Below are positions 13,676 through 60,159 of a stretch of DNA of 64,000 nucleotides, one piece after another. The DNA is from Chiloscyllium plagiosum (Eukaryota). Each line of letters starts with the position of its first letter. Position 1 is the first letter of the stretch. Under the pieces are notes generated by a model. That model saw only the letters and a list, made by a program, of their open reading frames with translations. It had not been told where the DNA came from and ran no database searches. The position numbers were made by a program, and so were the translations under genes. The DNA is taken from assembly GCF_004010195.1 (NCBI RefSeq), contig NC_057718.1, forward strand, positions 98,965,794-99,029,793, in the 5' to 3' direction.

Positions 13676-13873
13676 GAAAAGACCGTGGGTGCTGGAAATC
13701 AGAAATGAAAACAAATTGCTGGAAAAACTCAGCTGGTCTGGCAACATCTGTGGAGTGAAATCAGAGTTAACATTTCAGGTTGAGTGACCCTTCTTCAGAA
13801 CTGGGGAATTCTGAGGAAGGGTAACTTGATCCAGAATGCTAACTCTGATTTCTCTCCACAGATGATGCCAGAC
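13676..13873. mobile_element. Fold-back Penelope-like pLTR element (family C), two inverted copies
   Basis: TGTGGAGTGAAATCAGAGTTAAC...CCCTTCTTCAGAA followed by TTCTGAGGAAGGG...TAACTCTGATTTCTCTCCACA (inverted). Confidence 0.75.
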
Positions 13874-14149
13874 AAATTTTAATTTGTTAGTCAATTAGTA
13901 GTCTAAAACATAACTGTGAGAAATAGTTATTGGGTTATTAAACTATAACATGCAGAATAAAATTCCATTTAATGATAATATCCTAAATATATCAATTTAT
14001 TTACATAGATAAAAGAGCATAGTGCATTTGTAGGTTACTTTTGCTTTGATTGAAACTACTTTGAGCTGAGCTGCTCATCTTGAATCCATGGCTCCATCCT
14101 GACTGCTTACTTTATTAAAAACAAATTTGATCACTGGCAAGCTAGTATT

Positions 14150-14460
14150 GATCGCTCATTGCTAATTGCCTTCAATTGAATTGAATTGTTATGCCATTTC
14201 AGAAGGGAGTTAAGAGTCAACCATGTTACTGTGGGTTCTGGATTCACATGTAGATCAGACCAAGAAAGCTCAGCAGATTTCCTTTTCCAAAGGATGTTGA
14301 TGAACGAGATGGTGTTTTTCTCAGCGTTTGAGAATTTCTTGGTCACCATCACTGAGACCTGTTGTATATTCAGATTTTATCGTTGAATTTTAAATTCCAC
14401 CAGTTGCATAGTGAGATTTGAACCCACAATCTAAACCACTAGCCTAGTCTTTTGGTTTAC
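14150..14460 (-). mobile_element. tRNA-derived SINE with LINE-like tail; related plus-strand copy at about 25415-25790
   Basis: B-box-like GAGATTTGAACCC on the plus strand, central AGAGTCAACCATGTT..GTGGG, and a tail resembling 2140-2230. Confidence 0.5.
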
Positions 14461-14633
14461 TGGATAACTGACAAAGCAGTATCTCTCTGTATCCACCTCC
14501 ATAACATCCTGGGGGTCAATCAAAACCCTGCCTGTGTCCTAAATGGCTCCAAGTCCTGTTCATCCATCACCTGCCATTGCCATCACCAAATTATCTCCCA
14601 ATGCAGTGACACTTCAACTTAAAATGTTTCACT

Positions 14634-16424
14634 GGGGGAGATCCAAGATGGCGGCGACTCAGCAAGTCTGAGTCTATAGTGCTCCTCCCAAGTCCAAGGC
14701 AAAGTGGGCCACCCTCCCCCACCACACTCACCAAATCAACTAAAAATAGTTTTTATTTAATGTAGTTAGTAGTTTAGTACGAAATTTATACAGTTCAGTC
14801 TCCTGTAAAAATGACTAGGGGGAAAGGAGCCCCCAGTTCTCAGCAGGCAGGAGCCCCTCCCCAGCTGCAGCAGAGGCTTCCGCAGCCGCCCTGGGGGACT
14901 TATCTACAGTGGCGAGCCTTGCGAAAATAATCTCCAAACTCAACGTGAAGATTGATGCTTTCATAGAAGAGTCCCGAAGTCAGTGGAATTCACTCTCGGC
15001 CGCGCTACAAAAGCTCGACCGAAACATCGAAGAATTTGAATGCCGAGTCGGAGGGGTGGAGCTAAAGGCCGCGACCTCCAAGGCCATTGCAGAATCAGCC
15101 GTGGATCGGGTCCGGCCTCTCGAACAGCAAGTGCGGACCTTAGAGAACCACATTGACGACCTCGAGAATCAAAGTTGTTGAAAAAATATTCGTTTGCTGG
15201 GCCTTCCCAAACGGGAAGAAGAAGGCCAGCTTACAAGGTTCCTTGAACAGTGGCTTCTGCAGTTATAGAATGTGGAGGCTGGATCAGGCCAGGTAAGGGT
15301 GGAATGGGCCTACCGGGTTGCAATACGCGGGCCGGCTCGTACCAGCAGCCCCGCCCGGTCCTGTTCCAGCTGCAGAGCTATAAGGTGAGGCAGATGCTCT
15401 TGGAAGCCTCCAGAAGTCTTGGGAAAGATCCACAAGCCATGACTCATAAAGGATCCAAGATTGTGATTTCAGGACTTTTCCCCAGCTTTGGTTTGAAAGA
15501 GGAAGGCATTTAATGAAGCAAAGAAGTGTTTAAGGGATTTAAACATTCAAATACTCCTTGCGCTACCCAGCTATACTACGCTTTAGCCATGAAGGGTCTG
15601 TGTTTAACATCGGCTCAATGGAGAAGGCCATGGAACTTTTGGATTCTCTTAGACAAATTATAAGAGTTAGTTGATGTTGTTTTGCCCTACCTCCACCCCG
15701 GTTTATCCCCCCCTTTTTTTTTCCTTTCATTATCTTACTGTTTATTATTATCTCCGGGGGGTGGGAAGAAGGGCTTATTTATTCATCCTTTACTTAGCAA
15801 TTTCCTTTCCCCCTTTTTTTATGTATATATAGGCCAGGAGGTCTAGTTAATGTAGATGGGGGGAAGGTGGCTACCTTATTTTATCTTTGTCCTTGGGAGC
15901 GGGGTTGTTTTCCCCTGTTATTTTGTATTAATATATTTAATTATTATTTGCTGAGACTGTAATTTTATAGTCATATATGTTCATATATGGTATTAACATT
16001 ACCAAATATATCCAGGTGTTGGTGTGGGTGGGGGATAGGGTAGTCACTGTTAGTTCTAGTTCAGTAGTATACTTGCATTTTCTTTATATGCTCTATGCTT
16101 GGGATGTTTTGGATAAATACAGGTTTTGTTGTGATCTGATGTTAACACGTTCCGAGCATGTATATCACTGCTCAATTTGTGTTATCCGTTGGAATTTTTT
16201 TTTTCTCTTGAATAATGTAAGAATTTTAATGATACACTCTGGTTAGTTGTAAGTTAGATGAGTAGTTAGTTGAGTTTTGTCTCTTTTTTTTCTTGGTATT
16301 TCTTTTTTCTTGGTTGATAGATTTTGGTTATCATTTATTTAAGATTTAACTGTATATCAATGTTTATACTTGGGTCTTTTTTTAGTTTTCTTTTGTAAAC
16401 TTGTGGAAAAAAATTTTAAAAAGT
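14634..16424 (+). mobile_element. L1-clade ORF1-only (HAL1-like) element, decayed; ORF1 about 14811-15670
   Basis: 5' GGGGGAGATCCAAGATGGCGGCG. Coiled-coil followed by IDDLENQSC*KNIRLLGLP (L1 ORF1p DLENRSRRNNIRI.GLPE-like), PRPVL, QDFS, LRYPA. No ORF2 follows, only a T-rich tail ending in an A-rich stretch. Confidence 0.8.
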
Positions 16425-17819
16425 ATTTTGTCATTTTCAAATGCTTCAATGCACATCCCCCGACTGAGCCTTTCTATGTAACATTCTTCAGTAATACAGC
16501 TGTTCAAGATCTCTGCACCCCCTTTAGCATCCTCTCTTCCATCCCATCATCTGCTGCTGTGCTTTCAGCTGCCTGTGTCCTAAAGTATGGAATTTCCTGC
16601 CTCCGACCTCTCAAACTCTACTTCTTTAAAACATTCCTATAAATTTTGCCACTGTAGTAAGCTTTGATCACTAGTATATTTCTTTATCTGCAAGCATGGC
16701 ATTTTTTAAATTAAATATTTATGGTTAGTGCGACATGTATTTCTATGCCTGTGGGAGTGTGGCTAGTTTGTTTTACTGATTTATGCAAGTCACTTAAATG
16801 ACTTGTATCATTCTCAGTCTAAAATTCTACTGTGTGGGACAAATTTAAATATACTTTAAAATTTGTTTTTTTTTTGAAGAGCTAAAGTGACTGTAATGTG
16901 TTTGGGACATCCTGAGATAATTAAAGCTACAATAAAAACACAAGTTCTTTCTTTTAGTCATTTCAAATGCATTATGTGCCTCACTCATCCCCTTTAATGT
17001 AGTACTTTTGCACCACTTGTTCTGTGACTTGCTCATGATCTTCTACTTTAAACCTAATCAATGGTTAAAGGCATCCATTTCACTTTAACCAATATCTCCA
17101 GTTTGTTGAAGGTATTAAAAGAAGGGTTATCATGATGGTGTAAACCATGATCTAAGGTGTGCCACAAACTGATTGAACATGATTGCTTTGACCCGAGAAG
17201 CAATGTTTGTTTTACATTATTATATTTTTGCTACAAAGTAACATGCATTGTCTGCCATAATGTAGATCATCCAGTGTAAAATAAAAAATGGCAAGAAACC
17301 AAAATGGCATGAAAGCTATTATGGTGGATACCATAGTATAAATGATTTTAGTCTGGTGTGGTGCATGTTATTGTCTGGTTCAGATTAATATTTTTCCTCT
17401 CCCTGCCTCTCAAACCTAAAAATAAAAGTTCCCCCAACCATCCTGTAACCCCTTTTGACTTGAATACTCCATTTGGTCATGACTTTCCATGTGCAATGGC
17501 AATGCATATTGACCAAAAGATACTTACAGAAAATAAAAATGAAAACTGCTGGAAATTCTCTACAGGTCTGGCAACTCCTGAAACTGCATCATAATTAACT
17601 CAAAAAACAACCTCTGCTTCCCTCTCCAAAAATGCTATTAGACCTGTGGAGAACTTTCAGGACCTTCTGCTCATATATTAGATGTTTAGAATTTGCAGGG
17701 GGTATTTTGCTTTTAGTCAATAGCAACGGTTGTGTACTTGTATTTCAAATGCATGTGACTTATCAAATACTAAGTGCAGCATTAAAGTTCTTATCCATAG
17801 TTTGACGCTGTCTATAGCA

Positions 17820-18123
17820 GAGCTGGAAATGTGTTGCTGGAAAAGTGCAGCAGGTCAGGCAGCATCCAGGGAACAGGAGAATCGATGTTTTGGGCATAAG
17901 CTCTTCTTCTGGAAATGTGTTGCTGGAAAAGCGCAGCAGGTCAGGCAGCATCCAGGGAACAGGAGAATCGACGTTTCGGGCATAAGCCCTTTCCTGAAGA
18001 AGGGCTTATGCCCAAAACGTCGATTCTCCTGTTCACTGGATGCTGCCTGACCTGCTGCGCTTTTCCAGCAACACATTTCCAGCTCTGATCTCCAGCATCT
18101 GCAGACCTCACTTTCTCCTCAAA
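17820..18123. mobile_element. Fold-back Penelope-like pLTR element (family A): two tandem minus copies and one plus copy, 13-bp TSD
   Basis: TSD GCTGTCTATAGCA at 17807-17819 and 18124-18136. Internal direct and inverted repeats. CTGAAGA-AGGGC-TTAT-GCCC-AAAA-CGTC at 17994. Confidence 0.85.
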
Positions 18124-18529
18124 GCTGTCTATAGCAATCTGTCCTGGTGACTAGAATCTTAAATGCTCCCCAACCCCAACTGTATTTGCTTCCAGCGCTA
18201 TGTGGAAGATGTAAACGAGATAAAGTTTTTCTCAAATTTTCCTCAATTTTTCACAGAGCCAGTCTTCACTTGCACTTTTTTTTGCATTCTTGTTACTCTT
18301 GTTATTTTGAATATTTCAAAATAAATGCAATTTATGGTAAAACGTGTATAATTTACAAATTAATGTCATTTTTTGGAATTCAACATAGTCATAGGTCGAT
18401 GTTAGTTACTTCAATGAAGCTTTCTCTTACAAAAAAACGAAGATCTGTGAATGATTCTGGAACAGTGACCTAGTCTAGTATGTGGCAGAGAGCAGATGAT
18501 TATAAGCCCTTGTTTTGTTGGTGGAACAG

Positions 18530-19274
18530 TGTTGATACTGTTGGCTTTACTACCTTTGGAGTAAACTTGCAAGGTTAGCTTTGTTTTCAGTTCAGAAGAA
18601 ATTATGATGAATATGATTTGTTTTTAATTGGTTCAGAAAATTCAGATTTTCATTTCAGAAACACTAATGTTGAGCTGAGAAGCCATTTAAGTTTTGCTCT
18701 GAAAAGCAGTTCAGAAACCAAGACACTTCAGCAAAAGGATTTAGTTTCTGAAACAGTCAAGCCAGGGGAGTTCTGTTTGAAGTTTGCAAGTTATTAGAAC
18801 TGAGAAAATTTAGGCTCTCTTGGATTCATGATAAGTTCACTTTAGCAGATTTGGAAAGGACTCATCAAATTGTCTCTGTAGTCCACAGGAAACAAACTTT
18901 TGAGGAGTCAGTTAAGTAGAACCCTAAGGAGTTGAGTTTGGGTGTTCAATTTCTCTAGACTTGAGTCTCTGAATATCTGAATAACAGTGTTAGGAAACAG
19001 TTGAAACTTGGTTTGTTTTGAGATCATTCTATCTGTTGTGTATATAGTATATTCACAATATATAAGATGTATTTATGTATGTTGTTTTGTATTCTATATT
19101 CTTCCTTTTGTGTAGTAGACGTCTGTTCTGTTGTTAAAAAAAAAACTGCAACCTTATGTGGATGTGTTTTAATCTCGGACCACCGCGTTAATTAACTAAA
19201 TAAAAACAATTTGTCAAACTAGATTCGTTCGGAGATTTGACTTGTCCAGTAGTACCATCATCTGGAATCAAAAC
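18530..19274 (+). mobile_element. Possible degenerate solo LTR
   Basis: TGTTG...AAAACA termini and LTR-like length and composition. No TSD could be resolved. Confidence 0.3.
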
Positions 19275-19849: not shown

Positions 19850-22320
19850 CAGAAGCTTTCATGGAATGGTTGCAACCTAGAGCCCAGAAGGAGGGCATTT
19901 AGCTCATCGTCTCCATAGTGGCTGTCTCTAACAGTAGCCCAGTTAGTTTCACTCCCTATCGTTTGCCCGTAACCTCACAGATATTTGCTCTTCGGATAAT
20001 TAACCAATTTACTTCTGAAAGCTGCAGTTGAAGCTAATTCCACTAATGAAGTGCATTTTAAATTCTCGTTACTTGCTCTGTGAAAATAAAAGACTTTGAT
20101 CATGTAACCTTTGGTGTTTTGCCATTTACCTTTAAATTAGTGTTCTCTGTTTCTCAATCCTTCCACCAATACGAACAGTTTCTCCTTGATTACATGTTCA
20201 GACCCCTTACGATTTGCACAGCCCTATAAAGCCTCCACTCTACCTTATTTTCCTGAGAAGAATGATCCCAGCTGTTCCAACCTACCCATGTAACTGAAAT
20301 TCTTCATTACTGCAATCATCCTTGTAAATCTTTTCTGCAGTCCCTCTAATGCCTTTGAATTCTTTCTAAAGTAGGGCAAACAGAATTGAAAGCAGTGCTG
20401 CAAGTGAGACCAAACCACTGTTTTATATTAAAAAAACATAGCCTTCTTGTTTTTTATGATCTCCATATCTTTGTTTTCCTACCAGTTGTATCACTTCACA
20501 CTTCTCTGCATTAAGCATTATATGTTATTTGTCTGCCCATTTGACCAGCCTGTCTATGACCTTTTGAAGTCGAGTGGTATCCTCCTCACAGTTCATAACA
20601 CCTTTAGGTTTTGTGTAATCTTCAAACTTTGCAATTGTACACTGTACACCCATTTCTGATGATGGGCTTATATCCAATTCTTCTGCTCCTTGGATGCTGC
20701 CTGACCTGCTGTGCTCTTCCAGCACCACACTCTTCGACCTAAATCATTAACAGATTGAGAAAGTGTGATCCTAAAACGTTGTCTTGAATAACCAACTATA
20801 TACCTTTGTCCATTCTGAGAAACATTCATCCCTTGCTATTTTCCGTGCTGTGTATTCCATGGTCTTTAATTTTATGGATAAAAGTCTATTATATGGCATT
20901 TTACTTGATGCTTTTGGAAATTCATCTCCAGAGTGAAGTAACCACATTACCCTTATTCATCCTCTTTGTTGCTTCATCAAAAAATTAAACCGAGTTAGTT
21001 AAACATTATTTTAACCAGTTCATTGATGGTTTTCCTTAATTAATCAATATTTGTCCAAAGTGATTGTTAATTTTCTCCCAGATTATGATTTCTAAAGATT
21101 TCCCACCACTGACGTTGCTGGGTTTATCCTGAAATCTTTTTAATGAACAAGAGTATAACGTTGCAGTTTTCCAGTCCTTTTGCATCCTCGTTGATTCTAA
21201 AGAGGATGAAAGATTATGGTTTGTAACTCTGCAATCTCTGCCCTTTCTTCCCGTAGTGTCTTCAGATATATGTGAGCTCAATCTTGGTAACTAATCAAAA
21301 GTAAGTGCAGTGAACCATCTAATACTTCCTCTTTATCAATGTTTTGCCCTTCCAGTGTCTCAACTATCTTTTATTTCAGTTGAGTTTTTACAGCCGGTTC
21401 TTCCTTGGTAAGGACAAATATGAAGTATTAATTCAGAATCTCAGCCTTTCTGAATAAATGCTCTATTTGATGCCTAGTTAGCTGCACTCATCTCTTTTTG
21501 ACACTTGTTTTAAAAACAAGTATATAAATAGCAAAACTTACTATTTATATACTTTTGCATTGTCTTTGATGTTAGCTATCAGACTCTTTCCATAGTTTTG
21601 ATTCTTCTCATTTCTTTTCTCCCTTACACCCTGACCTTTATGTTCAGGGTGGTGCTCACTAATGTTATCAATCTGACATCTCATCTATAATCTTTTCTGC
21701 TTCAGCGACTTCTCTATCTTTTTCATTGTCCAGGAAGCTCTGAAATTGTATGTCCTACTTTGCTCCATCATGGAAATGTATTTTGATTGTACCCAAACTA
21801 TCTCTATAAAGGCAGCCCAGTGTTTCATTCCAATTTTGCTGTCTCTTATTTTGAATTTACTTGGGCTAGATCTGGGTTTTTTTCCATTTAAATTGGCCCA
21901 TTGCCACTTAATTATTTTTACTTTGGATTGTTGTTTGTCGTTTTCTGTATCTGATCAAAACCTGATGACGCTATGATCACTGCCCTTTAAATGTTCCCCA
22001 ATTGACACTTGATCTAACTTATTCACTGGAACCAGATGCGACAATTTCTTTTTCCTTGTTGAGTGGAAACATACCGAACTAGAAAATTCACAGAAATGCT
22101 TTCTCCTCTCTGAAACTTACAATAGTACCACCCTAATCTTTATTAGGATAATTAAATAAACCCATTATAACTCATTTATTTGCCTGTCTGTAATTTCCTT
22201 GTAAGTTTGTACCTGTGTTTGCATTCCGCCCTCACTTGGTGGCTTGGAGACTACACCCAGCAGTGTAATGATCTGTACCTTGTTTTGTTCTGTCCCTGAC
22301 ACCTTTAGGACATCTCTTTC
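19850..22320 (-). mobile_element. Long degenerate CR1 LINE (ORF2 remnants)
   Basis: Minus-strand peptides AKFEDYTK..RLQKVIDRLVKWADK and DWKTA...KSLEIII. CR1-like 3' end near 19900-20400. Confidence 0.65.
20652..20740 (+). mobile_element. Family A Penelope-like pLTR fragment inserted in CR1
   Basis: CTGATGATGGGCTTAT...GGATGCTGCCTGACCTGCTGTGCTCTTCCAGCA, matching 17994-18075. Confidence 0.75.
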
Positions 22321-26900: not shown

Positions 26901-28882
26901 TTAAGGATGGGTGATGCACCGGTCGCACAGGGTAACTTCGCGATTCCGATTCGGATTTGGATTGTTTTGGTGCTACGGCTGATCAATGTTTGTTTGGAGT
27001 ATGCTGATTAATACTCCGTTCAAACCATGTGCGTCACATCTGGAAGAAATCTGATTCAACTTGTACTTTTGGATTAATGTTTCTTTTTACTCAGTTGCCT
27101 ATGAAGTAAAAACAAATTTTGAACAGGATTCATTTTTGTGAGCTTTAAACGTGATTCTTTGCCTTTCTTACAAGACTGAATTGTTTGGGTAATAAAGTAC
27201 TGATTCATGTTTCTTGCTATTGTGCTATTGGGGAGAGGTTGGTGACGTCAGCCGGTGTGGGAATTGAACCCATGCTGTTGGCATTAGTCTGCATTACAAT
27301 CCAACCTTCTAGTCAACTGATCCCCTGGACAAGGAGTATCCAGAATCAATCTTAAACATCTCCAGTGTCCATTCTTTGCTCTGATGCTAACTTATTCTGC
27401 GCAATCTAAATGAAAGTCTGTGTCTGGTACAAATCAAATGCAAATAATTTTTTAAAAACTCAAAACTTCCCTGATTTATGTTGTGTGTAGATTTTTTTTG
27501 TCATAGTGGCTCTACTTGACATTGGGTTTGGATGTGATGCTTATATAATAATCTCTCACTTCAAAATGGTTGTATTGCAACCTTTCAACTGATTCAGCAA
27601 TAGGTAATGTCTCAATAATTGGCTGATTTGGTGGCACAGTTGCTGTGATTTTACCAGGGATGCTGAATGGATGAAGCACAGCATTGCCTCGAGACAGCAG
27701 CCACAAATGTATCTACTCTAGACATGCTGCTACTGGACTCTTCCACTCTATGTCCTGTGGAACCAGAATGCTGGGTGATAATGAAGTCTGCAAATTTCTG
27801 CCTCCGGCTTCTCTCAATCTAATTATCCAGCATGTTGAAGCTGGAAGAAGGAGTTTCTTTATAGATTGGAGTCCAAGGCCTCAATAGCAGCAAGCTTAAT
27901 GTTTGTGAGCAATGCTCCCACTGTGCTTTGCATCACAAAGAGCTCTGCTGCTGTCGATGATGGAGTCTTCCAAATGCCTGACCAGATTTATGTTCAAGTG
28001 CCATCTTGTTAAATGTTTATTTAAAAACTGTCAAGTTTAGCTAACACAGAAGGGAACATATTACCCTGTTACTCCTCCAGCCCATTCTGTTTGTATTCAT
28101 TAACATAGGCTGACTTGCAATGAATCCTTAGGTTGCTTACTGTATTTCTCCCATGTTGTGAGAGGGCAGTGCTTGATAGCATTAAGTGTTCTGCCTGGCC
28201 TTATAGCTGTGCTGCATAAAATAAACTTCTATTATTTTCTAGATGTTCATCACAAAATTACCTACCAATTATAAGGGTGTATTTTGCAGCTAATCCTTTT
28301 GATCTCAATGTTTGAAATATTAAACTGTACTTTAGGCAGTTTTACTGGCTGCTTTTTTTGACCTCACTGATTTTTGGGAATTATTTATTCTGTCTGCTAT
28401 TTGTTCCCAAATTTGTTTGCAAACCTGCCAGACAATCAGGATAAAGATTTTAAAGATTCATATCAAATCATCCTGTTGTTCATACCTTTTGTACCAATGT
28501 TTCCACTGTCTAATTGTCAAAATAGCTCTGGTGTATTCTGGATGTCTGTAATTTACAAAAATCTTGCTAAGTAAATTCCATGCCCAGTCTTTCTGCAGTT
28601 GGAAGTTTTAAATGCCTTCTTAATACAGTTGCCAACTGTTGGGCCTCATTGTAGCTTCTACAGCTTTATTGATGAATCTGCTGTGCTGAAACAGTGTTGG
28701 GTTAATGGGCAGCAATAAATTTTTCCAGAAACCTTTAGTGAGCCACAATTAACTACCGGGTAGGACACCAACAGCCATCTCATAATTATCATATTAGACA
28801 CATTAGAGTCATGATCACAGTTTATTCATTTTTTTTTTGAGATTCCACAATGATAAATTACAATATTTTTTAAAATCAACTG

Positions 28883-29208
28883 GTGCTTTCAATTGGACTA
28901 TAATCTGGTGTTGCATGATTTTTAACTTTATACATCCCAGTCCAACACCAGCATCTCCAAATCATGAATTAAGATGGGCTGTGTGATCTTTATACTTTTA
29001 AGTTACATACTGTTCTGTTATAATTCTGTCAGTGTCATCTTACCTTTGAGACATGCTCATGACATAATCACTATAGAACAGTATGTAACTTAAAAGTATA
29101 AAGATCACACAGCCCATCTTAATTCATGATTTGGAGATGCTGGTGTTGGACTGGGATGTATAAAGTTAAAAATCATGCAACACCAGATTATAGTCCAATT
29201 GAAAGCAC
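28883..29208. repeat. Perfect inverted repeat, 134-bp arms (28883-29016 and 29075-29208), 58-bp spacer
   Basis: The arms are exact reverse complements when read base by base. Confidence 0.95.
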
Positions 29209-43005: not shown

Positions 43006-44079
43006 AGTGGTTTATGTCTCTCCTCACTGCTATCAACCAACCTATTTTTGCCATTTACAAGTAGATGGATAGAAAGAATGGAACGTAACCATAAAATAAA
43101 TTGTTCAAAAGGGTTCTGATTTTATTCTGGTTCCAAAACTTAAGAAAAAATAAATTTATGAATAGTGCCAAAGAACCTCAGTAGGTTTGGCAGTATCTGT
43201 GGAGAGAGGTACAGAATTAACGTTTCAAGTACAATATGATTGTTCGTTGGAGCTGTGTTTTCTGTTTTGTTTTTGATGTCCAGTATATACAGTGTTTTGC
43301 ATTTATAGAATTATATTGTTATATTAACTTATATAAGACTGGGCCAGGAGCATGAAAATAGGATTAGAATAGTTATGTGCTTGTTTTGATCGGCATGTTC
43401 TTGATGGGCTGAAGGACCTTTGCTGTGCCACAGACCTCTATGACTCTGACTCTGAAAATTAATACAAATATGTCTCTGTGATAAGGGAGACTACAGTTAT
43501 TTTGTTCTTTCTTAAAAACAACTGGAGTTGCTAGAGATCTGAAACAAAAATAAATACATTTCTGGAGGGACTCACCAGATCTGGCAGCATCTGTGGAGAG
43601 AGAAAGAGTTAATATTTCAAGTCCAGTGACTAGTCTGAAAATGAGCAGGCAATTCTCAGTATTTTGGCCAACATTCCTACCTCAAACAGTGTCAACCAAA
43701 AAGTATAATGAGATTAGCGGTCATTTATTTGCTGTTCTCAGGACCCTTGTAGGTGCAATTGGTTACCATCTTTACCTTCGTAACAATGCCCTCTCCTTTC
43801 TATTTATTTTTACTACTTTCTCTCAAACATCCAAGTAAACAAAGCCTTCAAAAGTTACCCTAATCCCCGAGTAGACAATTCAGCAAAATCGCAGTTTGCA
43901 ATCTGCACTACTCAACTATAGTTAGTGATATTCCACCATTGAGAAAGTCAGAACGCAGCAAACGTACAGTATGCACAAATGGCTGGGCAAAAAAAAACTC
44001 TAACTGAAAAGGCAATCTTTCCAGTCTGTTCAATTATAATTAATTCCCAATCTGAGAACCAGCAGCTCTGAAGAGAGGG

Positions 44080-47051: not shown

Positions 47052-47377
47052 GATTAGATTGCATTAGACTAGATTACTTACAGTGTGGAAACAGGCCCAT
47101 CAGCCCAACAAGTCCACACCGATCCTCTGAAGAGCAACCCACCCAGACTCTTTCCCCACATTTACCCCTTCACCTAACACTACGGGCAATTTAGCATGGC
47201 CAATTCACTTAACCTGCACATCTTTGGACTGTGGGAGGAAACCAGAGCACCCGGAGGAAACCCATGCATACACTGGGAGAATGTGCAAACTCCACACAGT
47301 TACCTGACGTGGGAATTGAACCCAGGTCTCTGGCGCTGTGAGGCAGCTGTGCTAACCACTGTGCCACCGTGCCACCC
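47052..47377 (-). mobile_element. HE1-type shark V-SINE
   Basis: Highly similar to 41053-41361. Confidence 0.9.
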
Positions 47378-47421: not shown

Positions 47422-49037
47422 CAAAGGAACCTCGATTATCCGAATAAGATGGGCGGGCGCTATTTCATTCGGATAATTGATTCAATGCTTCTCCTCTGCG
47501 GGCCCGAAGTTTTTCGAAGTTTCCTTTTTCCTTGCTCTGCCTGCCTTGCTCCCTCTCTCTATCTCAGGGTTTGTTTCTGAGCAGACACACAGTTCTGTGT
47601 AAGGGACCTGCAGCATTGCTGAAGCCTACCGCATTCTACCCCCCACCCCCCAAAAAAAATCAGTTTGATGGGATTGAGAGCGAATACTTGCTACGTCAGC
47701 TCCCTGTTCGGGAGACTAGACAGCAGCACACCACGTTCAAGGCGCCCCCCCCCCGCCCTGTCCAACACTGTCTCCGCCTGCCCCCACCCACTGTCTGACC
47801 TGGTTGACCAGCTCCCCGTGCCCCCGCTTTCCTTCTCTGGGGCAGCTGGCTGGAGACCAACAGCAAGACTGCTACACCTAGGCGCACACACCCAGACAAA
47901 CACAGACACGCACACACTCTCTGTACAGGACAATTTGGAAAGAGTATCTGGGGAAGGGGGGAGGGGGGTTTAGGGTAACTTTAGAACTGTGTAGAACTTT
48001 AGGGAAAGTGTGGGAAGAGAGAAGGCAGGCAGTCAGTCATTTGGAGACAGTGCCTGGGCTCCCATCAATGTCCAGGACTGTTCTTGGCAGCATTTCAGAG
48101 TTCATTTTTAATCATTGTGAAGTGGCAGATGGAGTTTAATTCAGATAAATGTGAGGTGCGGCATTTTGGGAAAGCAAATCTTAGCAGGACCTATACACTT
48201 ATTGGTAAGGTCCTAGGAGTGTTGCTGAACAAAGAGACCTCAGAGTGCAGGTTCATAGCTCCTTGAAAGTGGAGTCGCAGGTAGATAGGATAGTGAAGGA
48301 GGCGTTTGGTATGCTTTCCTTTATTGGTCAGAGTATTGAGTACAGGAGTTGGGAGGTCATGTTGCGGCTGTACAGGACATTGGTTAGGCCACTGTTGGAA
48401 TATTGCGTGCAATTCTGGTCTCCTTCCTATTGGAAAGATGTTGTGAGACTTGAGAGGGTTCAGAAGCGTTTTACAAGGATGTTGCCAGGGTTGGAGGATC
48501 TGAGCTATAGGGAGAGGCTGAACAGGCTGGGGCTGTTTTTCCTGGAGCGTTGGAGGCTGAGGGGTGACCTTATAGAGGTTTACAAAATCATGAGGGGCAT
48601 GGATAGGATAAATAGACAAAGTCTTTTCCCTGGGGCCGGGGAGTCCAGAACTAGAGGGCCATAGGTTTAGGATGAGAGGGGAAAGATATAAAAGAGACCT
48701 CAGGGGCAACTTTTTCACACAGAGTGGTACGTGTATGGAATGAGCTGCCAGAGGATGTGGTGGAACCTGGTACAATTGCAACATTTAAGAGGCATTTGGA
48801 TGGGTATATGAATAGGAAGGGTTTGAAGGGATATGGGCCGGGTGCTGGCAGGTGGGACTAGATTGGGTTGGGATATCTGGCCGGCATGGACAGGTTGGAT
48901 CGAAGGGTCTGTTTCCATGCTGTACATCTCTAAACAAAAGACACGATCAAATGTAATGTTTCTATTGGGACTTTGAGATCTTCTTTGGATAATCCAAAAT
49001 TCAGATAATTGATACTCACATAATTGAGGTTCCTCTG
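47422..49037. mobile_element. Non-autonomous Tc1/mariner (pogo/Tigger-like) DNA transposon carrying a CR1 insertion
   Basis: TIRs CAAAGGAACCTCGATTAT and ATAATTGAGGTTCCTCTG. TA TSD at 47420-47421 and 49038-49039. Confidence 0.8.
48115..48930 (+). mobile_element. Young CR1 LINE 3' end
   Basis: Well-preserved peptide LYRTLVRPLLEYCVQFWSP...QKRFTRMLPGL...RLRGDLIEVYKI and CR1 tail. Confidence 0.93.
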
Positions 49038-52000
49038 TATATGGCTAGTCCAGTTCACTTTCTGGATCAATGGTAACCCCCTACTAAGATGTTAGTGGCA
49101 GATTCAGCAATGGTAATGCCATTGAAGTTTGAGGGGCAATGGTTAGATTTTTTGTGGTGGAGATGGTGATTGGATTGCACCTGTTAATGTTACTTGCCAA
49201 CTTATCAGCCCAAACCTGGATATTATCCAAGTCTCGCTGCATTTGAGCATAGACTGCTTCGGTGTCTGAGAAGTTGCACATAGTGCATAACCTTATACAA
49301 CCATTGTCCCTGCTTCTGACCTTAAGATATAAATCAGATTATTGATGATGTAGTCTACATAATGAGCATCTATACTTTGTTAGCAGAAGTGTTTCTAGAC
49401 CAGAATAGTCTGTGGTACATCTGTTTCTGAGGATACCCAAGTTTGATCGGACGTTGTCACAGGCATGAATTCAGTGCAATTAATGCTGGCCCTGTACAGA
49501 ATATTGTTTACACAAACTGAATACTTTTCCAGTCAGTCCTTGAATGGAAGCCATTTTCCAGTGGACATTGATGAAGCCTGGCTAAAACCTGAGGTTATTT
49601 AAGTGTTTGACATGCAAGATATTATTTACAGCTGAACAGCATTGCAACTTAAATTGCTCTCAATATTACACGTGCTTCTAATATTGAAGGGAGATTGAAA
49701 ACATGAACAAAACCTGTAGTATTGGCCTGCTTCAACCATCTACTTGTAACTGAGCCAGTTTCAACCATTTAGTTGCTATTTAAGGGATACCAAACCAATA
49801 GCATACCAGCATGTTCTGCATCCATGACAAGGAACCACAGTCATGAAGCATTTGAAGTGATTATGCTAGTAAACTCCCCAGCTGTCCACAGGCTATTTGA
49901 GGTAGTTTTTAGAAAAGCAAATCTGCTTTATTTCTAAAATAACTTACTTATCTGGCTTCATGAACTCTGCCTAAATAAACCAGTTTAATTATCATGCACA
50001 ATTTGATAAATGCAGTTTTGAGACCCTTCCTATTTTACACTGCCTTTCTATCTTACTCTTGCTTACATAAGCTGTTAATTAACTTTAAGGTAAATGTGAG
50101 TTATCCTTTGTAACAGCTTGCAGTTGTGTTTAATGTACAGCTAATATGTTACCAACTTGCAAGATTAGTTATGTGATCTTGATTGAAAGGTTATCAAAAA
50201 TGTTGAGAATGTAATGATTAAATTCCCTAGTTAAAATTGAAGTGTTACATGAATTTGATTTTTTTTTTAAATTATGAGCTTATTTGTCATTTTGTAAGTA
50301 GCCAACAATGTGCCTTCTTTACTCTGAAATGCAGTTTATACAAAATGTTAGTGGTGAAGTTATGCAGGTGCCAGATTCCGCTGGGACAGGAACACCTGCC
50401 AGGCTGCTCCAGATAACTCAGCAGCTTTGAGGCATTTTCCCAGGCTCCCAGATGAATGGTCACTAATAGCCGTGGGAGAGGGCTTCCAGTGTCGCATAGT
50501 GTACCACATTCTCTACTTGGCACTGTTATGTAGCTAAAGTCTGTTTGGCTGTGATTGCAACTTTTAAATAAGATGGAAGAAATATGCAGCTGAGTTTTTT
50601 TTTTATTTTCATTTGGATAATTCTTAAGTTTAGTAAGCATAACAAAACACTCTAAATTTAAGTTGGTAACTTTGAAATATAAGCAACTGCGGTATCTCCT
50701 AAAATGGTGTAACTTGATTACAGCCAGTGTATCAGATAAGTGCAAGGCTGGAAAAGGCTGAAGGTAGCTGCCAAAAATGACTAAAAGTAATTGCACATCA
50801 TTCTGCAGTCGGTGAAGTTATTTTGAAAGTTTACATGACTTGAAATGCTCAGACATACTTGACCACTTCCCAGCTTCAAGCAGAGACATGTAACTGTGCT
50901 ATCTCCTGGGAAATAAAAAATTCACTGAAAACATTATTTGTAAAAACCAGTGTGGTCAGCAATCTGCTTGTTGTGTGGCTTAGAATTTTTTCACAAATAG
51001 ATTCAAAAGTTTTGCGTTCATGCACTTTGATGGATTATTGCAGCTGATCATTTTATTAGCTATGCTGATATTCAATATTTGTAAGTTGACAGTTTCTTTC
51101 CTATTGAGTTGGATTCAGTTCCTCAACTTTGTATTTTGTTGAGAAAACCTGATATTGTAAAATGATGAGCATTATTTAACATACAATAAAAGTTAGGAAT
51201 TCTTTGCCGAAGCTACATCTATTGTTCATTATGATTTATCACAATGTGCCCACCATGATTTTAGCTTTCACTCTTCTTTTTCATCGATTATTATCTTGTT
51301 AACTTTATTTTATAGAAATTTGTTTGTTATCTTAGCTTGTTATTATTGGTCAGATGAGAAAAAAAATTAATTTTGCAGGCACACTTGTGAGAGTTCACCG
51401 TTAAGTCTTAAATCAAAAGGTATTGATTACCCCTTGAGAAAAATGTCTCCTTGATTGATACAGTTCCAAACGGGGTTGACTGATAGGTGAGAGATTTTTA
51501 AACACTTGTTCTCCTAAAATCCATTTGAAGAATATGAGATTCTAAGAATCCCTTGAGGCACCACTTCCTTAAACCTTACATGAATGAGTCTCTCTCTGGG
51601 AACAAGCTAACATAATCCGTTTGCTATAATAACTTAAGTTCTCTCTTACAGCAGGCTCACTTGACAAGGTGGCTAGATTTAACTCTGATTACTTCTATCA
51701 ATGGGATCAATCCTAATTGCCATTGTAAGCTTTAGATTAGACAGGGCATTGAAATCTCCATCCTCACACCTAGTACTTTATTGAATGGAAAGGAAATGAG
51801 AGTGAACTTTGCATTGTAATACCTGATTTGAAAATGTGCATGTCCTTTTCTCATTTTTATGATTTTGTTTTGCATGTTCACTATTACCAAATGCCTAAGT
51901 GTTTTATCTTTCCAGTTAAGTGATCCATCTTGCCTTAATCAGTTGTACATTTATGGACACCACTATTTTCCATTGTGAATCTTTGAGGAGCACCTTTGGA

Positions 52001-52853
52001 TAATGCAAAATGGTTTAAGATGTCAAAAGTTCAACATCAATCAATACTTTGATCCTCATGACCTTAGTGGGAAAAAGTGCACTGGAAATCAAGCCACGAA
52101 TCATCCCGCACATGAAATATGACCAATCTAATGTCCAGGATGTATAATGCCTGACCACTATTTAAGATAAAATGAACCTGTACCAAGTCTCTTTAATGAA
52201 CAAGAAAACAAAGCCTATTTATTTTAACTAATTATTCCTCTAACATGGGGAAATAAACAGAATTTGTGTGGTCAATGTACACACTTAAGCTTAATATCCC
52301 TTTAAATCCAAGCACACACATGTCATTCATAAATGGGTAGGACAAGACAGATGAGAGAAACCTTTTTTAAGAAATATCGTGGGTGGAAAATATAAACAAA
52401 AAGGCACAAAGTCTGTGGATCAGAGTCCAAACTAAAATGGGTGGGACGAAATGAGATGACTTGCTTTTTTTGTTGTTTTGATAGCACGTTGTTGATAGCT
52501 TATAGTTGTCAATTGCAGTCATCCTCAATTTGGTAGCCAGTCAATTAGACCTAGGTCTTGGCCAGATTTAAAAATTTTCTTTTTTCTTTGCAAAGTCTTT
52601 GAGAGTTATTACTTGACATTCAGAGAGAGAGAGAGATTTCACTTGCTGCCAGGCTTGAAGGTTTATGTCCTAACTGTTCTCTTTCCTCTCAATTCTGTGG
52701 CAAACTGTCACGACCAGTCCACAAGCTTTTGCCAGGTAGTTACTTAGATTTCAAAGATGTCTGGTGCTGGTGAATCCCACAAAACTATCAAAATCCTGTT
52801 TCCTTAAAAGAACACCACACAGTTCAACTTCTCCTTTGAGAAGTTTTTTTAAA

Positions 52854-53353
52854 NNNNNNNNNNNNNNNNNNNNNNNNNNNNNNNNNNNNNNNNNNNNNNN
52901 NNNNNNNNNNNNNNNNNNNNNNNNNNNNNNNNNNNNNNNNNNNNNNNNNNNNNNNNNNNNNNNNNNNNNNNNNNNNNNNNNNNNNNNNNNNNNNNNNNNN
53001 NNNNNNNNNNNNNNNNNNNNNNNNNNNNNNNNNNNNNNNNNNNNNNNNNNNNNNNNNNNNNNNNNNNNNNNNNNNNNNNNNNNNNNNNNNNNNNNNNNNN
53101 NNNNNNNNNNNNNNNNNNNNNNNNNNNNNNNNNNNNNNNNNNNNNNNNNNNNNNNNNNNNNNNNNNNNNNNNNNNNNNNNNNNNNNNNNNNNNNNNNNNN
53201 NNNNNNNNNNNNNNNNNNNNNNNNNNNNNNNNNNNNNNNNNNNNNNNNNNNNNNNNNNNNNNNNNNNNNNNNNNNNNNNNNNNNNNNNNNNNNNNNNNNN
53301 NNNNNNNNNNNNNNNNNNNNNNNNNNNNNNNNNNNNNNNNNNNNNNNNNNNNN
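52854..53353. other. Assembly gap (500 N)
   Basis: Run of N. Confidence 0.99.
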
Positions 53354-54420
53354 GCATGGATAGAGGATTGGCTGACTGGCAGAAGGCAGAGACTGGGGAT
53401 AAAGGAATCTTTTTACAATGGCAACCAGTGACTAATGCAGTTCCGCAGTGGTCGGTTTTGAGACCACAACTATTCACGTATTATTAACGATCTGGACAAA
53501 GGAACTGAGGGCATTGTTGCTAGGTTTGCAGATGACACAAAGATAGGTGAAGGGACAGGTAACGTTGAGGTGGTGGAGAGGCTACAGATGGTTGAGTCAT
53601 TCCTGATAAAGGGCTCCTGCCCGAAACGTTGATTTTCCTGCTCCTCGGATGCTGCCTGACCTGATGTGCTTTGCCAGCACCACTCTAATCTTGACTGTAA
53701 TCTGCAGTCCTCACTTTCGCCCTTCAGATTTGGAGGCTAGCATTCCTTTCGTTTTCTTATCAATTTTCTGCATCTGTTCATGGCTATGCACCTGAATCCC
53801 CAAATCCCATTGGGGCATCCACTATATTTAACTTTGTGCTTTCTAATGCTTTCATTTGGCATTTGGGAAGGCAAATACAATGTTAGCATTCATTTTGAGA
53901 GGGCTAGAATGTACTGCAGAGGTTATGTGAGCATCCGGTCAGACCGCATTTGGAATATTGTGAGCAGTTTTGGGCCCCATATCTAAGGAAGAATGTGTGC
54001 TGATCTTGCAGGGGATCCGCAAAAGGTTTACCAGAATTATCCCAGGAATGAAGGGCTTGTCATATGAGTAGTGGTGAGGAATTGAAGAGGAATGAGGAGT
54101 GATCCCATTTAAACTTAGATACTGAGAAGCCTGCATAGGATGTGGAGATGATTTTTCTATTCTGAGGAGAGACGAGGACCCAAGGGCATAGCTTCAGAGT
54201 GAAGGGATGATCCTTTAAGGGGATTTTTGTCACCCAGAGGATGCTGAATTTGTGGAACTCATTGTCACGGAAGGCCATTGAGGCAAAGTCACTGTATTTA
54301 AGATAGAATGCATTCTTGAATAGTAAGGGGATCAAAAGTTATGGGGAGAAGGCAGGAGGATGGGGTTGAGCAGCGTATCAGCCATAATCAAATGGTGGAG
54401 CAGACTCGATGGGCCAAATT
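53354..54420 (+). mobile_element. CR1 LINE RT 3' region, interrupted by a family A pLTR at about 53598-53722
   Basis: VPQWSVLRP, RFADDTK and VRPHLEYCEQFWAP remnants. The insert reads CTGATAA-AGGGC-TCCT-GCCC-GAAA-CGTT. Confidence 0.78.
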
Positions 54421-54442
54421 ACCTAATTACACTCCTGGCACA

Positions 54443-54571
54443 TAGTCATAGAGATGTACAGCATGGAAACAAACTCTTCGGTCCAACCCGTCCATGCCGA
54501 CCAGATGTCCCAACCCAATCTAGTCCCACCTGCCAGCACCCGGCCCATATCCCTCCTAATCCTTCCTATTC
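54443..54571 (-). mobile_element. Young CR1 tail fragment
   Basis: Reverse-complement match to 48810-48930. Confidence 0.85.
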
Positions 54572-56336
54572 AACATCTTATGGTCTTATGGAACTTTTTC
54601 ATCCAGTGAGTGGTAAGCCTGTGGAAATCTCTACCATGGGAACCTATTGAGGCTAAAGAATCAAAGAGTATGGATAGAAATCAGGAACAGAGTGCTGAGT
54701 TGGATGATCAGCCATGATCATACTGAATGGAAGTGCAGCTCAAAGGACCAGATGGCCTACTTCTGTTTTCTATGTGTCGGAGTTTTTGTTTATTTTGAGT
54801 ATTCTGAAATATCCTCTTAAATGTCTGCTACTTTGTCTCTATTGAGCTATCCCCTAGCCTAGTATCAGTTCGCTTTAGCTAGCCCAGCTTTGATGCCTAC
54901 ATCATTGTCCTTGTTTAAGATTAAAACATGAGTCTTAGACCGAATCTTCTCCTTTTCAAATTGGATGTTAAATTCAATCATATTGTGGTTGCTGTAACCA
55001 AGGTTGCTTTAACTCTGTTATTAATTAGTCTTGTTGCACAATATCACATCTAAAATAACTTATTTTCTGGTCAGTTCCAAAATATGCTGTTCCTAAAAAA
55101 AAAAAAAGTGATGTTGAAAGCATTCTATGAGCTCCACATCCAGGCTGCTACTGCCAATCTGATTATTGCAAATTGTATGTAGATTACCATCACCCATCTT
55201 TATTCATATCCCTTAATGGCAAGCGCTTCATACTTTTTCTTGCAAATATTGTCCCATTTTCTCCCACATTGTGTTTACTATTAGGGGACTTGCAAACGAC
55301 TTCCACTAATGACCTCTTTCCCTTACCATTCCTCATCTCCATCTGAAACAGTTCTACGTCTTGATCCCCTAAACCAAGGTCATCTCTAACTATTGCTTAA
55401 AGGATCAACAGTGCTACCCCTACACCTTTTCCTAGATTTCTATTTTTCTTCAATGTCACATACCCTCAATATTCAGGACACATCTGTTATCCTGAAGCTA
55501 TGACGACATGTTAGTTGTCAAATTGTATTTATTACTTCAGAGTACTATGAATGCTATGAATATTCCGAGTCTTAGTTTTGTCTTTTTGCTTTCTTTGCAA
55601 CATCTAGTCTTGATTTTATTATATTCCTCGGACATTTTTCTCTCTGCTCCTTCCAGACCCTCATTTTTTTGTATTACTATTTTTCTGTCTTGCCTAAACT
55701 CTACGCTAGGATAAGCCACATCTTTCCACATTTGATCCCTTGCCCCAAGTTTAGCTTAAGTTTGGTTTATTTAGTTTAAAACTCTCACTTTTATAGTTAT
55801 GCAGTTCACAAGAAACTAACCCAAGCATTGTTCATGTGTAGACTGTCCCGGCAGTTTAGTCTCTTTTCCTCCGTACTTTTGCCAGTTCGCCTTCAAACTA
55901 GAGCATACTTCACCCACAATAATTTTTGAGCAATGTGTATATCTTTTAAATTATGTATATCGTACACCAGTTTTGATGTGGCTCAGGAAATAACTTAGAG
56001 ATTATAACCTTTTTGAGGTTCTGCTTTTCAGTACCTAGTTCCTCACACTATATATGTGAAACTTTGTTCCTATTTCTACCTATGTCATCGTACCTACCTG
56101 GACCATGACTGTCAAACCCCACCTCTGCCAACTGCATTCATTTTCAGTCGTGAGCAGATTCATTCTGCTCAAAAAAGGCCTTTCAACCCATCAAGTTTGC
56201 ACCGACATAACTACCACTGAAAGTATGCTTGTCCCAATTTTCTGAGCTTGTTCCATATCCTTGAATGTTGTGATATTTGAAATACACATCCAAATATCTT
56301 TTAAAGGTTGTAAAGTTTCCAGCCTCTTTGCTGCAT

Positions 56337-57910
56337 CCTTGAACACAGGTGAGGACCCAAAGGTCTGGAGAATTGCCAATGTCCCCTTGTTTAAGAAGGG
56401 TAGTTAGGATAATCCAGGTAATTATAGACCGGTGAACCTTGACGTCAGTGGTAGAGAAGCTGCTGGAGAAGATACTGAGGGAAAGGATCCATTTATGTTT
56501 GAAAGAAAATGGGCTTATCAGTGATGGGCAGCATTGTTTTGTCAGGGAAGGTCATATCTTACCAATTTAATAGAATTCTTTGAGGAAATGACAAAATTGG
56601 TTGATGAGGGAAGGGCTGTAGGTGTCACATAAGGCATTTGATAAGGTTTACTAAGAGAAAGTGAGGACTGCAGATGCTGGGGACCAGAGTTGAAAAGTGT
56701 GGTGCTGGAAAAACACAGGCCAGGCAGCATTCGTGGAGCAGGAGAATCGATGTTTCAGGCATAAGCCCTTCTTCAGGTTGATAAGGTTTTCCATGATAGG
56801 CTGGTGGAGAAAGTGAAGTTGCATGGGGCCCAGGGTGTACTAGCTAGATGGATAGAAAACTGGCTGGGCAGTAGGAGACAGAGTGGTAGTGGAAAGGAGT
56901 TTCTCAAAATGGAGAACTGTGACCAGTTGTGTTCCACAGAGATCCATGCTGTTTGTGATATACATAAATGATCTGGAGGAAGGTATAGGTGATCTGATTA
57001 GCAGATTTGCTGACGCTAAGATTAGTGGAGTAGCAGATAATGAAGGGGACTATCCGAGAATGCAGCAGAATATAGATAGATTGGAGAGTTGGGCAGAGAA
57101 ATGGCAGATGGAGTTCAACCCCGGCAAATGTGAGATCATGCATATTGGAAGATCCAATTCAAGAGTGAACTATATGGTAAATGGAAAAGCCCTGGGGAGT
57201 ATTGATGTACAGAGAGTTCTCTGAGTGTTAAGATCCATTGTACCCTAAAGGTAGTAATGCAGGTCGATAGAGTGGTCAAGAAGGCATATGGCATGCTTCC
57301 CTTCATTGGATGGCGTACTGAGTCCAAGGGTTGGCAGGTAACGTTACAGTTGCATAGGACTTTGGTTCGGCCATATTTGGAACACTGCATACAATTCTGG
57401 TTGCCACATTACCAAAAGGATGTGGATGCTTTGGAGAGGATGCAGAGGAGGTTCACCAGGATGTTGTCTGGTATGGAGGGTGCTAGCTATGAAGAGAGCT
57501 TGAATAGATTATGATTATTTTCATTAGAAAGATGAAATTTGAGGGGGGACCTGATTGAGGTTTACAAAATCATGAGAGGTATAGACAGGGTGGATAGCTA
57601 GGCTTTTTTTCCCCAGAGTGGGGGATTCAATTACTAAGGGTCACACGCTCAAGGTGAGAGGGGAAAAGTTTAAGGGAGATATGCTTGGAAAGTTCTTTAC
57701 GCAGAGGGTGGTGGGTGCCTGGAATGCATTGCCAGCAGAGGTGGTAGAGGCGGACACGATAGTGACATTTAGGATGTATCTGGACAGATACGTGAATGGG
57801 CAGGGAGCAGAGGGATACAGAAAATAGGCGACAATTTTAGACAGAGGATCTAGATAGGCGCAGGGTTAGAGGCCGAAGGACCTGTTACTGTGCTGTAATT
57901 TTCTTTGTTC
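56337..57910 (+). mobile_element. CR1 LINE, 5'-truncated ORF2 and tail
   Basis: NYRPV, LTNLIEFF, VPQRS, SRFAD, LVRPYLEHCIQFW and FFTQRVVGAWNALP. Confidence 0.92.
56650..56777 (-). mobile_element. Family A pLTR inserted in CR1 with 12-bp TSD
   Basis: TTGATAAGGTTT at 56638-56649 and 56778-56789. Minus strand CTGAAGA-AGGGC-TTAT-GCCT-GAAA-CATC. Confidence 0.85.
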
Positions 57911-58197
57911 TCATTGCAGAGGCTGACACTTCAGCCCTCTAGCTCCTCTTACTTGTCTCAGTCACAATCACACCCTTCTGTACCTGACTATCAGCAAACC
58001 TTGTCCTAAGTAGTGCATCAACCTCCTGATATAAAGACTCCAGGTAAACTTCACCTCCTTTGATGCATCAGTGTCTGTATTTCAGTCTTCAGTCTATAAT
58101 TTCTGAGCCAAGTCTGCTCGAACGTCACTTACTGCAGATGTGTTTGCTATAGATTCTGCAGCCTGTTCGCATCAGCTGAACTTCTCATCTCAATGAG

Positions 58198-58368
58198 TTA
58201 AAATTCACACCACACCAGGTTATAGTCCAACAGGTTTAATTAGAAGCACTAGCTTTCGGAGGAGCAGTGCTCCAAAAGCTAGCGCTTCCAATTAAACCTG
58301 TTGCACTATAGCGTGGTGTTGTGATTTTTTAATTTTGTACATCACAGTCCATCACTGGCACCTCCAAA
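58198..58368. mobile_element. Fold-back family B pLTR element with imperfect 13-bp TSD
   Basis: TCATCTCAATGAG (58185-58197) and TCATCCTAATGAG (58369-58381). Inverted arms centred on GGAGCAGTGCTCC. Confidence 0.8.
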
Positions 58369-60159
58369 TCATCCTAATGAGGTTTAATTATGTATTGATC
58401 ATTTACTTATGCTGCCTTTTATATATTTTATTGGTGTTACTGCCAATTTGTATGTTATGTAAAAATTTAAGAATAGAAAGATCTTAACCAGAGACTTATC
58501 AAATAGCAAGCTTCTTTCACTATAGTAGACTTAGAACCAATTCCAGTTAGCTTCACTGAGTCTCTGACTACCTGCCTTTGTGTCCTAACCTCAACAGCCC
58601 ATGATTTTTGTTGAATCATGTTAGATCCTTCCCTTGCCATCTAGTGTTGCTTCTCTTAATGATTGTATGTGCACATGGAATAACATGGTTGATTAACTAG
58701 CACAAAACAGAAAGTACCAGGAAAACCTCGGCAAATCTGGTAGCATCTGTGGAAAGAGAAACAAAGCTAACATTTTGAGTTCAGTTCAGCTCCTCTTGAG
58801 AACTTTAGCTTTTATCACTGTATTTTTATGTGGCTTTTCTGGCATCCCAAAGCACTCATGGAAATTTTATCAAAGAAAATGACAATGAAGGAGATATTAG
58901 ATGCGAGTGAAAACTTAGTCAGTGATTGGTTTTAAGGAAGGTGCTAAAGGTGAAGGGAGAGGTGTAGAGTTTTCAGTGGGGAATCAAAAGCCTGGGATTA
59001 ACACAGCTGACAATGATGATGCACACAAGGTGCCAAAGGCAGATAACTGGTAAATGTTGCAAAGTTAGGGAAGGAGAAACTATCAGATTTAAAGATTAGA
59101 ATTTTAAACTTGAGGCATACTAGCTAATTCTCTGAAGATCAGACAGCAGTTTATTTGTTTAGTTATTTGTACTAATGTTTGTCAAATTTAACGTGTATGT
59201 AATAAGAACATAAATGCAAATATATGAATTACAAACAGAAGTAGGCAGTTTGGCCCCTCGAGCCTGCTCTTCTATTCACTAAGATCATGGCTGATCTGAT
59301 TGTGACTTCAGTATCACATTCCCACTTACCCAATAAGTTATGATGCCTATGCACTTCAAAATATTGAATGACCTCGTCCCAACTGTTGTGGCAGGAGGAG
59401 AGTCCTAGAATATGTTTAAAGTTGAGATTGATAGATCTGATTGTAAATGGTGTAAAGAATTATGGGGATAAGTAAAAGGCATTGAAGTGTTTGATCATAT
59501 TCAATGGCAGAGCAGGCTTAATAGACTGAGTTTCCTGCTGTTGTTCCTAAGTTCCCAATAGAGTTCCAAAGATTCATGACTCTGTCAGAGAACTAATTCC
59601 AAATTAAGTGGAAGACTTAAACTGTGTTCTTCACTCTAGTCGCTTGCATAAAGGGAAACATACTTTCAGCATCCACCTTGTTTAGCCCTCTCGGAATCTT
59701 CTATGTGGGTAATGATGCCTTTTTAATAAACTAATGCAGGCATGATGGGTTAAATGCCCTTTTTCTGCACTGTAACATTTCTGAGATTCTGTGACCTATC
59801 TCAATAAAATCACCTCTTATTTATGACAAACTGCAATAGGATGTTGGCACCTTGAATCTGGTTATTCCTTGAATAGAACAGAGGATAACATGCCCCTTAA
59901 AATAGAGGAGGTCTCATGAACATTGTCTGGAACGTGACGAGGAGGTCAAGGTTTAAGGCCCACTTGTAGCAGAGGCGTGCTATAACATGTCCAAACAGTT
60001 TGATTGAAAATAATTTACTTGAAGTCCTTTAAAATTGAGTATACTATTGCACTTTATGTCGGGAAAAGGATGATGTTTTCCATTTTTTACATAGTATAAA
60101 TTTTTATATACATATATATATATATAAGTGAAGCAGCAGTAGCAATGGATGTTGGAATA

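Follow-up and report, generated by a model that had tools for sequence, protein, structure and literature searches.

A 64,000-nucleotide stretch of the Chiloscyllium plagiosum genome (contig NC_057718.1, positions 98,965,794 to 99,029,793 of the forward strand), which we call the window, contains six short palindromic inserts (L1 to L6), a decayed coding copy of a Penelope-like element (PLE), denoted E, and several single-arm copies of the sequences that form the inserts (Table 1). The original prediction, made from the sequence alone, described the six inserts as non-coding fold-backs of two inverted pseudo-long terminal repeats (pLTRs) and offered two origins for them, namely, extreme 5′-truncated and inverted PLE insertions, or a non-autonomous hairpin class propagated by PLE reverse transcriptase (RT). 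Our analysis favors the first. All six are genuine fold-backs with the predicted boundaries, as judged by the matches between their arms and by RNA fold z scores computed for each insert against 40 dinucleotide shuffles. They also lack any coding remnant, as predicted: tblastn with 3 of 13 relatives of E as queries detected no coding sequence inside the six inserts, and its only matches were at 29205-30366.

Table 1. Inverted units and single-arm copies in the window, with their target-site duplications (TSDs); signed positions count from the first base of the hammerhead core
Feature	Coordinates	Strand	Arms and ends	5′-end pair	TSD (left / right) and match	Arm matches	Fold z
L1, family C	13676-13873		tailed - arm (13676 to ~13806), 5′ end about -6 to -9	-6 to -9 / -2	13655-13667 / 13872-13885, weak, gapped, AT-rich, 12/14 columns	56/66	-10.1
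L1 short arm	13809-13873	+	-2 to +63
L2, family A	17820-18123		tandem tail-less - arms 17818-17909 (+3 to +94) and 17909-17991 (+7 to +89)	+7 / -3 (further tandem arm +3)	17807-17819 / 18124-18136, 13/13	81/83	-24.9
L2 third arm	17991-18123	+	tailed, from -3
L3, family A	35376-35549		- arm from +16, + arm from +65, both tailed	+16 / +65		59/62	-21.0
L4, family B variant	36597-36779		tailed - arm (-1 by alignment, about -8 by eye), tail-less + arm from +25	-1 to -8 / +25	36584-36596 / 36780-36792, 11/13	51/67	-3.9
L5, family B	39361-39773		tailed - arm 39361-39453 (5′ end about +25), tail-less + arm to at least -199	about +25 / -199 or further	39348-39360 / 39774-39786, 11/13	53/60	-8.4
L6, family B	58198-58368		tail-less - arm from +18, tailed + arm from +8	+18 / +8	58185-58197 / 58369-58381, 11/13	53/62	-12.6
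E	29127-30856	+	decayed 1.73-kb coding PLE, same layout as the fold-backs		29115-29126 / 30857-30868, 12/12
E inverted pLTR	29127-29253	-	tailed, to -16
Family A single arm	56650-56777	-	-1 to tail		12/12
Family A single arm	40127-40209	+	+45 to tail		11/12
Family A single arm	53600-53721	+	-3 to tail		no clear TSD
Family A single arm	20651-20740	+	from -5, tail-less		no clear TSD
Family C single arm	4372-4493	+	from -6		candidate 9-bp TSD
Family C single arm	43520-43630	-	from about +11, hammerhead decayed

The sense body of E comprises, in order, the RT thumb, a CX4CxxC linker, a GIY-C-C-YIG endonuclease, a 3′ region and a terminal tail-less pLTR, and the endonuclease reading frame is broken by stops and one frameshift. 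E matched RT/GIY-C-C-YIG proteins with an expectation value of 1e-101 and 62 to 68% identity to shark proteins, which ranked highest among the named relatives of its coding region. The Pfam domain RVT_1 was found in four of four relatives; a Pfam search with the decayed open reading frame (ORF) of E itself, in two pieces and with X at the stops, returned no relevant family. The linker reads CQGRHCKTC in E, and the motif occurred in all six relatives listed. By its sequence E appears to be a Neptune-like PLE, the CX2-5CxxC linker being a motif described for Neptune and also for Nematis (PMC8557442). The inversion junction of E (29250-29273) sits at the RT catalytic YIDD motif. An inverted duplication at 28880-29211 (146 of 152 positions matched, with a spacer of ~45 bp) consists of 86 bp of the tailed pLTR of E and about 57 bp of host flank. 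Its pLTR parts are 99% identical and have a common 9-bp deletion, whereas the arms of E are 85% identical, and the duplication is therefore much younger than the insertion of E. It could stem either from a replication template switch or from an assembly artefact.

The arms fall into three families, A (L2 and L3), B (L4, L5 and L6) and C (L1), all of which contain a minimal type I hammerhead motif. Position +1 on the element sense strand is C3, the base with which the hammerhead core begins. The core, helix II and a short helix I were visible in an alignment of 10 arms, and helix I paired as CAC/GTG, TAC/GTA, TGC/GCG and AGTT/AACT across arms. No hammerhead family of Rfam was matched, with six sub-threshold matches, and a structure pair count gave 64% paired positions, the slid control being about as high and the alignment off by one between families. 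That family B arms are the pLTR of the RT/GIY-YIG element was borne out by sequence matches to E at 30450-30860 and 29126-29252. The broader claim that all arms are PLE pLTRs holds for this family; for families A and C the assignment rests on the hammerhead, the tail and the TSDs. Arm identity was 98% within L2 and 94 to 95% between L2 and L3, and in family B it was ambiguous on short alignments. A pattern scan of viral contigs gave no matches, and the 17 loci found by a scan of metagenome contigs were rejected as chance matches of 20 to 26 bp without extension.

One architecture is common to all seven inverted units, i.e., the six inserts and E: a head-to-head inverted copy is joined at its 5′-truncated ends, with the 3′ ends of the element facing outward in every unit and the joint of the two truncated ends at the centre. 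The 3′ ends occupy two fixed positions, one preceding and one following a tail of ~35 bp. In five of the seven units (L2, L4, L5, L6 and E), exactly one arm bears the tail and the other stops at the pre-tail site. Family B forms a size series of 171, 183, 413 and 1,730 bp (L6, L4, L5 and E) on this single plan, the 5′ ends of its arms ranging from +25 to about -1,530 in E. The description of the inserts as two inverted arms with a symmetry centre near the hammerhead needs amendment in three cases. L2 consists of three arms, two of them forming an 86-bp tandem pair and the third inverted; in L5, one arm includes a further 200 to 235 bp of the element that precede the hammerhead, and the centre is a long loop; and the right arm of L3 starts downstream of the hammerhead, at 65 nt within the pLTR. 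The breakpoint of both L4 and L5 is +25 (36714-36722 and 39450-39453), where the helix III stub has its self-complementary AGCT; the predicted hammerhead cleavage site follows 4 nt further on.

Flanking duplications had been predicted for four inserts, and TSDs of 13 bp do abut the ends of four of the six. For a random pair of sequences at fixed boundaries, a match of 11/13 or better has a probability of 2.75e-5. In a loose search of +/-12 positions, 7 of 300 random position pairs scored as high (7 or more), and the 11/13 TSDs therefore rest on their exact abutment. No TSD was found at the ends of L3. The TSDs are 12 to 13 bp long, unrelated to one another in sequence, and also present on the coding element and on single-arm copies: among the six single-arm copies tested, two had a 12-bp TSD, one had a candidate 9-bp TSD and three had none. 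In the three 11/13 TSDs (L4, L5 and L6), both mismatches lie at positions 6 to 8 of 13, a post hoc observation on three cases that could reflect staggered-cut repair or chance.

The inversion junction is different in each of the seven units of the window, including all four of family B and both of family A. Family A was further compared with contigs from three genomic DNA runs, including X1 and X10, of C. plagiosum and a relative, using the sense arm and right flank of L2 (17992-18600) as the reference at 82% likeness. As the reference starts at -2, 5′ ends further upstream could not be counted; moreover, short-read contigs break in repeats, and a summed depth does not give the copy number. 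The arm was matched by 57,951, 56,819 and 51,670 contigs in the three runs, and family A is therefore very abundant in the source organism and its relative. Loose ends followed by long, dissimilar flanks formed a pile where the tail ends, at 18118/18119 (1,853 in X1 and 1,974 in X10). We infer that a second pile at 18074/18075 (1,102 and 1,207, respectively) represents the tail-less class, the alignment breaking about 10 nt early where subfamilies differ. No dominant fold-back junction appeared in the three runs among the 15 of 66 joints listed. Nine of these 15 join opposite strands, none of them with more than 16 contigs or a depth above 871, whereas the single-copy flank has a depth of 16.6 and the arm one of several million; the highest junction among the joints listed thus stays below 0.1% of arm depth. 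Head-to-tail tandems (18119 to 17992) were present in 31, 14 and 29 contigs of the three runs. A 2,185-bp contig of the relative matches 18124-18600, its match opening at the first TSD base, and continues for at least 274 further letters without an arm match, whereas the X1 flank contig contains the tail (from 18102). The related species thus has an apparent empty site at L2, as read from these contigs.

We conclude, with a probability of roughly 0.8, that the inserts are extreme 5′-truncated, inverted insertions of an endonuclease-containing (EN+) PLE and represent the short end of a size continuum. The first of the two proposed origins is thereby supported, as the layout, tails and TSDs of the inserts are those of the coding element. 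It implies that the hairpin is built anew at each insertion and not copied from a hairpin master. Mechanistically, the GIY-YIG domain would cut both target strands with a stagger of 12 to 13 nt, and both target 3′-OH ends would prime complementary DNA (cDNA), each at a different one of the two internal RT start sites delimiting the tail. Both cDNAs would end early, often close to the hammerhead, and their ends would be united by short microhomology or end joining. Such two-ended priming at two start sites would account for the outward 3′ ends, the one-sided tail and the unique centres, and it is the most likely route to these inserts. The purified anole PLE protein PAc is reported to cut and extend both strands and is modelled as a dimer; its RT starts at two internal sites bounding the tail, and hammerhead cleavage is unneeded in vitro (PMC11167929). 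We found no paper that states a model of two-ended priming, in an incomplete coverage of the literature.

A number of observations count against this conclusion. No coding partner for families A and C lies within the window. L3 has two tails and no TSD, and the arms of L1 differ by about 60 bp, its short arm ending at +63 and not at the pre-tail site. In L1 to L4 and L6, the short arm is nested in the span of the long arm, and self-priming is possible there by span. The 5′ ends are not randomly placed, as 10 of 21 arms begin within -9 to +8 of the hammerhead. A few contig junctions (e.g., 17992/18024 and 17992/18037) recur at about 15 to 50 single-copy equivalents in two or three runs, and those of L2 (17992/18000) and L3 (18009/18058) are not among the 15 joints listed, which leaves the comparison without its L2 control. 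The larger recurring joints (18037 and 18083) probably pool several junctions, the reference differing there from other subfamilies. The joint 17992/18024 has two letters in common and might extend to the predicted cleavage site at +29, although short homology is an equally good explanation. As for the cluster of start sites near the hammerhead, it may mark the 5′ end of a short template RNA or an RT stop at structure.

The former possibility leads to the strongest competing account, which modifies our conclusion without replacing it. The template would be a short non-autonomous RNA of ~130 nt, from the hammerhead edge to the tail, akin to a solo pLTR or retrozyme and mobilised in trans by the PLE protein; fold-backs would still be made at each insertion, and the account can hold for family A only. 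We regard it as tentative. The starts at -9 to +8, which include those of four of the six single-arm copies, are as expected from such an RNA, as are the abundance of family A (52,000 to 58,000 contigs per run) and its head-to-tail tandems. In Adineta, pLTRs are described as sufficient for mobilisation in trans (PMC3846280), and retrozymes have been proposed to be non-autonomous PLE derivatives (10.64898/2026.07.22.740005). In contrast, the spread of family B arms is a continuum that requires a long RNA, and the predicted cleavage site (about +29) is not the starting point of a single arm in the window. The same clustering would result if RT were halted by structure at the hammerhead, and the contig counts are blind to ends upstream of the reference start. 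Somewhat more doubtful still is a combined model in which the hammerhead-headed pLTR RNA of ~130 nt is a non-autonomous partner of shark PLEs resembling a short interspersed nuclear element (SINE), and a dimeric RT-endonuclease primes at both nicks of a cut staggered by 12 to 13 nt, using the two internal start sites, and makes a new hairpin at each insertion. If this were true, the genomic copies would be a natural readout of the unsolved integration geometry of PLEs, including the origin of inverted copies and one-sided tails.

Alternatively, a single cDNA or antisense template might fold at a short palindrome and copy itself, a snap-back mechanism put forward for PLE inverted junctions (PMC3846280). 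The nested arms of five inserts, overlaps of 1 to 2 bp at several junctions and the breaks of L4 and L5 at the self-complementary AGCT of the hammerhead fit this scheme. Nevertheless, in L5 and E each arm has sequence absent from the other, which precludes a snap-back origin of either arm from its partner. Nor does snap-back offer an evident cause for the pre-tail RT start site being where the short arms of L2, L4 and L6 end. Because of these private sequences and pre-tail ends, two-ended priming is favored, and we consider self-priming unlikely.

The second of the two proposed origins, in which PLE RT re-inserts transcripts of an entire fold-back as a propagating non-autonomous class, fared poorly and is in our view very improbable. 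The inserts are TSD-bounded units, and a few junctions do recur in the contigs; yet all seven window junctions are unique, none of the joints listed is dominant or reaches 0.1% of arm depth, and the larger ones fall where subfamilies differ and thus pool junctions. The resemblance to MITEs (miniature inverted-repeat transposable elements) that had been noted is real for short, non-coding, hairpin-forming, TSD-flanked inserts with inverted arms, but it is superficial, since the termini are not mirror images (one tailed, one tail-less), lengths and centres vary, fixed symmetric terminal inverted repeats, a superfamily-type TSD and a fixed length are absent, and the 12- to 13-bp TSDs of unrelated sequence are common to single-arm copies and the RT-coding element, so that the unequal ends rule out MITE identity and movement by a DNA transposase has a negligible probability.

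Other features of the window include older family C-related fragments at 17529-17575, 43174-43230 and 58720-58775. Decayed RT remnants of long interspersed nuclear elements (LINEs), which we take to be CR1-like, lie at 9563-11002, 48119-48933, 53353-53590 and 56365-57805, and the family A single-arm copies at 53600 and 56650 sit inside such remnants. A dispersed repeat of ~310 bp (41053-41360 and 47063-47368, with a part at 7392-7478) is 90% identical between copies and has short simple repeats at its ends; by eye it is presumably SINE-like, and ARAGORN found no tRNA genes in it. The window also contains an AT-rich palindrome of about 80 to 100 bp unrelated to the pLTR families (34172-34272), a 120-amino-acid open frame that we assume to resemble the coiled-coil region of LINE ORF1 (14819-15181), and an assembly gap of 500 N (52853-53352).

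Inserts of this kind could be miscalled by repeat pipelines as MITEs or microRNA hairpins, and L2 itself gave a sub-threshold match to the Rfam family mir-722 (39.8 bits versus 81). As short, abundant, TSD-bounded units, they make the formation of inverted PLE copies testable by counting nested versus non-nested arms, one or both tails, TSD lengths and 5′-end positions. We found no description of a palindromic or non-autonomous mini-Penelope class, in a literature coverage that lacks most subscription papers and Repbase.

Among known systems, Neptune and Nematis share with E and its relatives the C-terminal GIY-YIG domain, the two cysteines within its motif and the linker, whereas no ORF in the window is linked to families A and C. 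The arms resemble the minimal PLE hammerheads in their CUGANGA core, the extra base before helix II, the GAAA, the palindromic 4-nt helix III stub and the short helix I. Pairs of minimal hammerhead motifs 100 to 700 bp apart on opposite strands, along with solo motifs, have been interpreted as probable truncated PLEs (PMC4209133); the accessible text of that paper gives no junctions, tails or TSDs of the pairs and names no shark families. Retrozymes not derived from LTR elements are likewise non-coding, pLTR-related and equipped with a type I hammerhead, and family A forms short head-to-tail tandems (10.64898/2026.07.22.740005). As described there, however, retrozymes are direct tandem arrays with a hammerhead per unit, whereas the arms of the present inserts are in inverted arrangement and mostly have an incomplete core; a tandem pair occurs in L2 only, and both of its units lack the start of the core (+3 and +7). 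The closest counterpart is the EN+ PLE unit, reported with an inverted pLTR, an optional 31-bp tail and a TSD of 9 to 10 bp (PMC3846280), or with an adjacent inverted 5′-truncated copy and a tail of 30 to 40 bp (PMC8557442). The inserts share with it the head-to-head inverted copy, the tail at one end, the partial tandem (in L2) and a TSD around the whole unit; they differ in consisting of pLTR alone and in having TSDs of 12 to 13 bp, compared with 8 to 10 bp as given for Adineta in these two papers. The inverted layout with a tail has thus already been described for PLEs, and the inserts are a miniature form of this known pattern.

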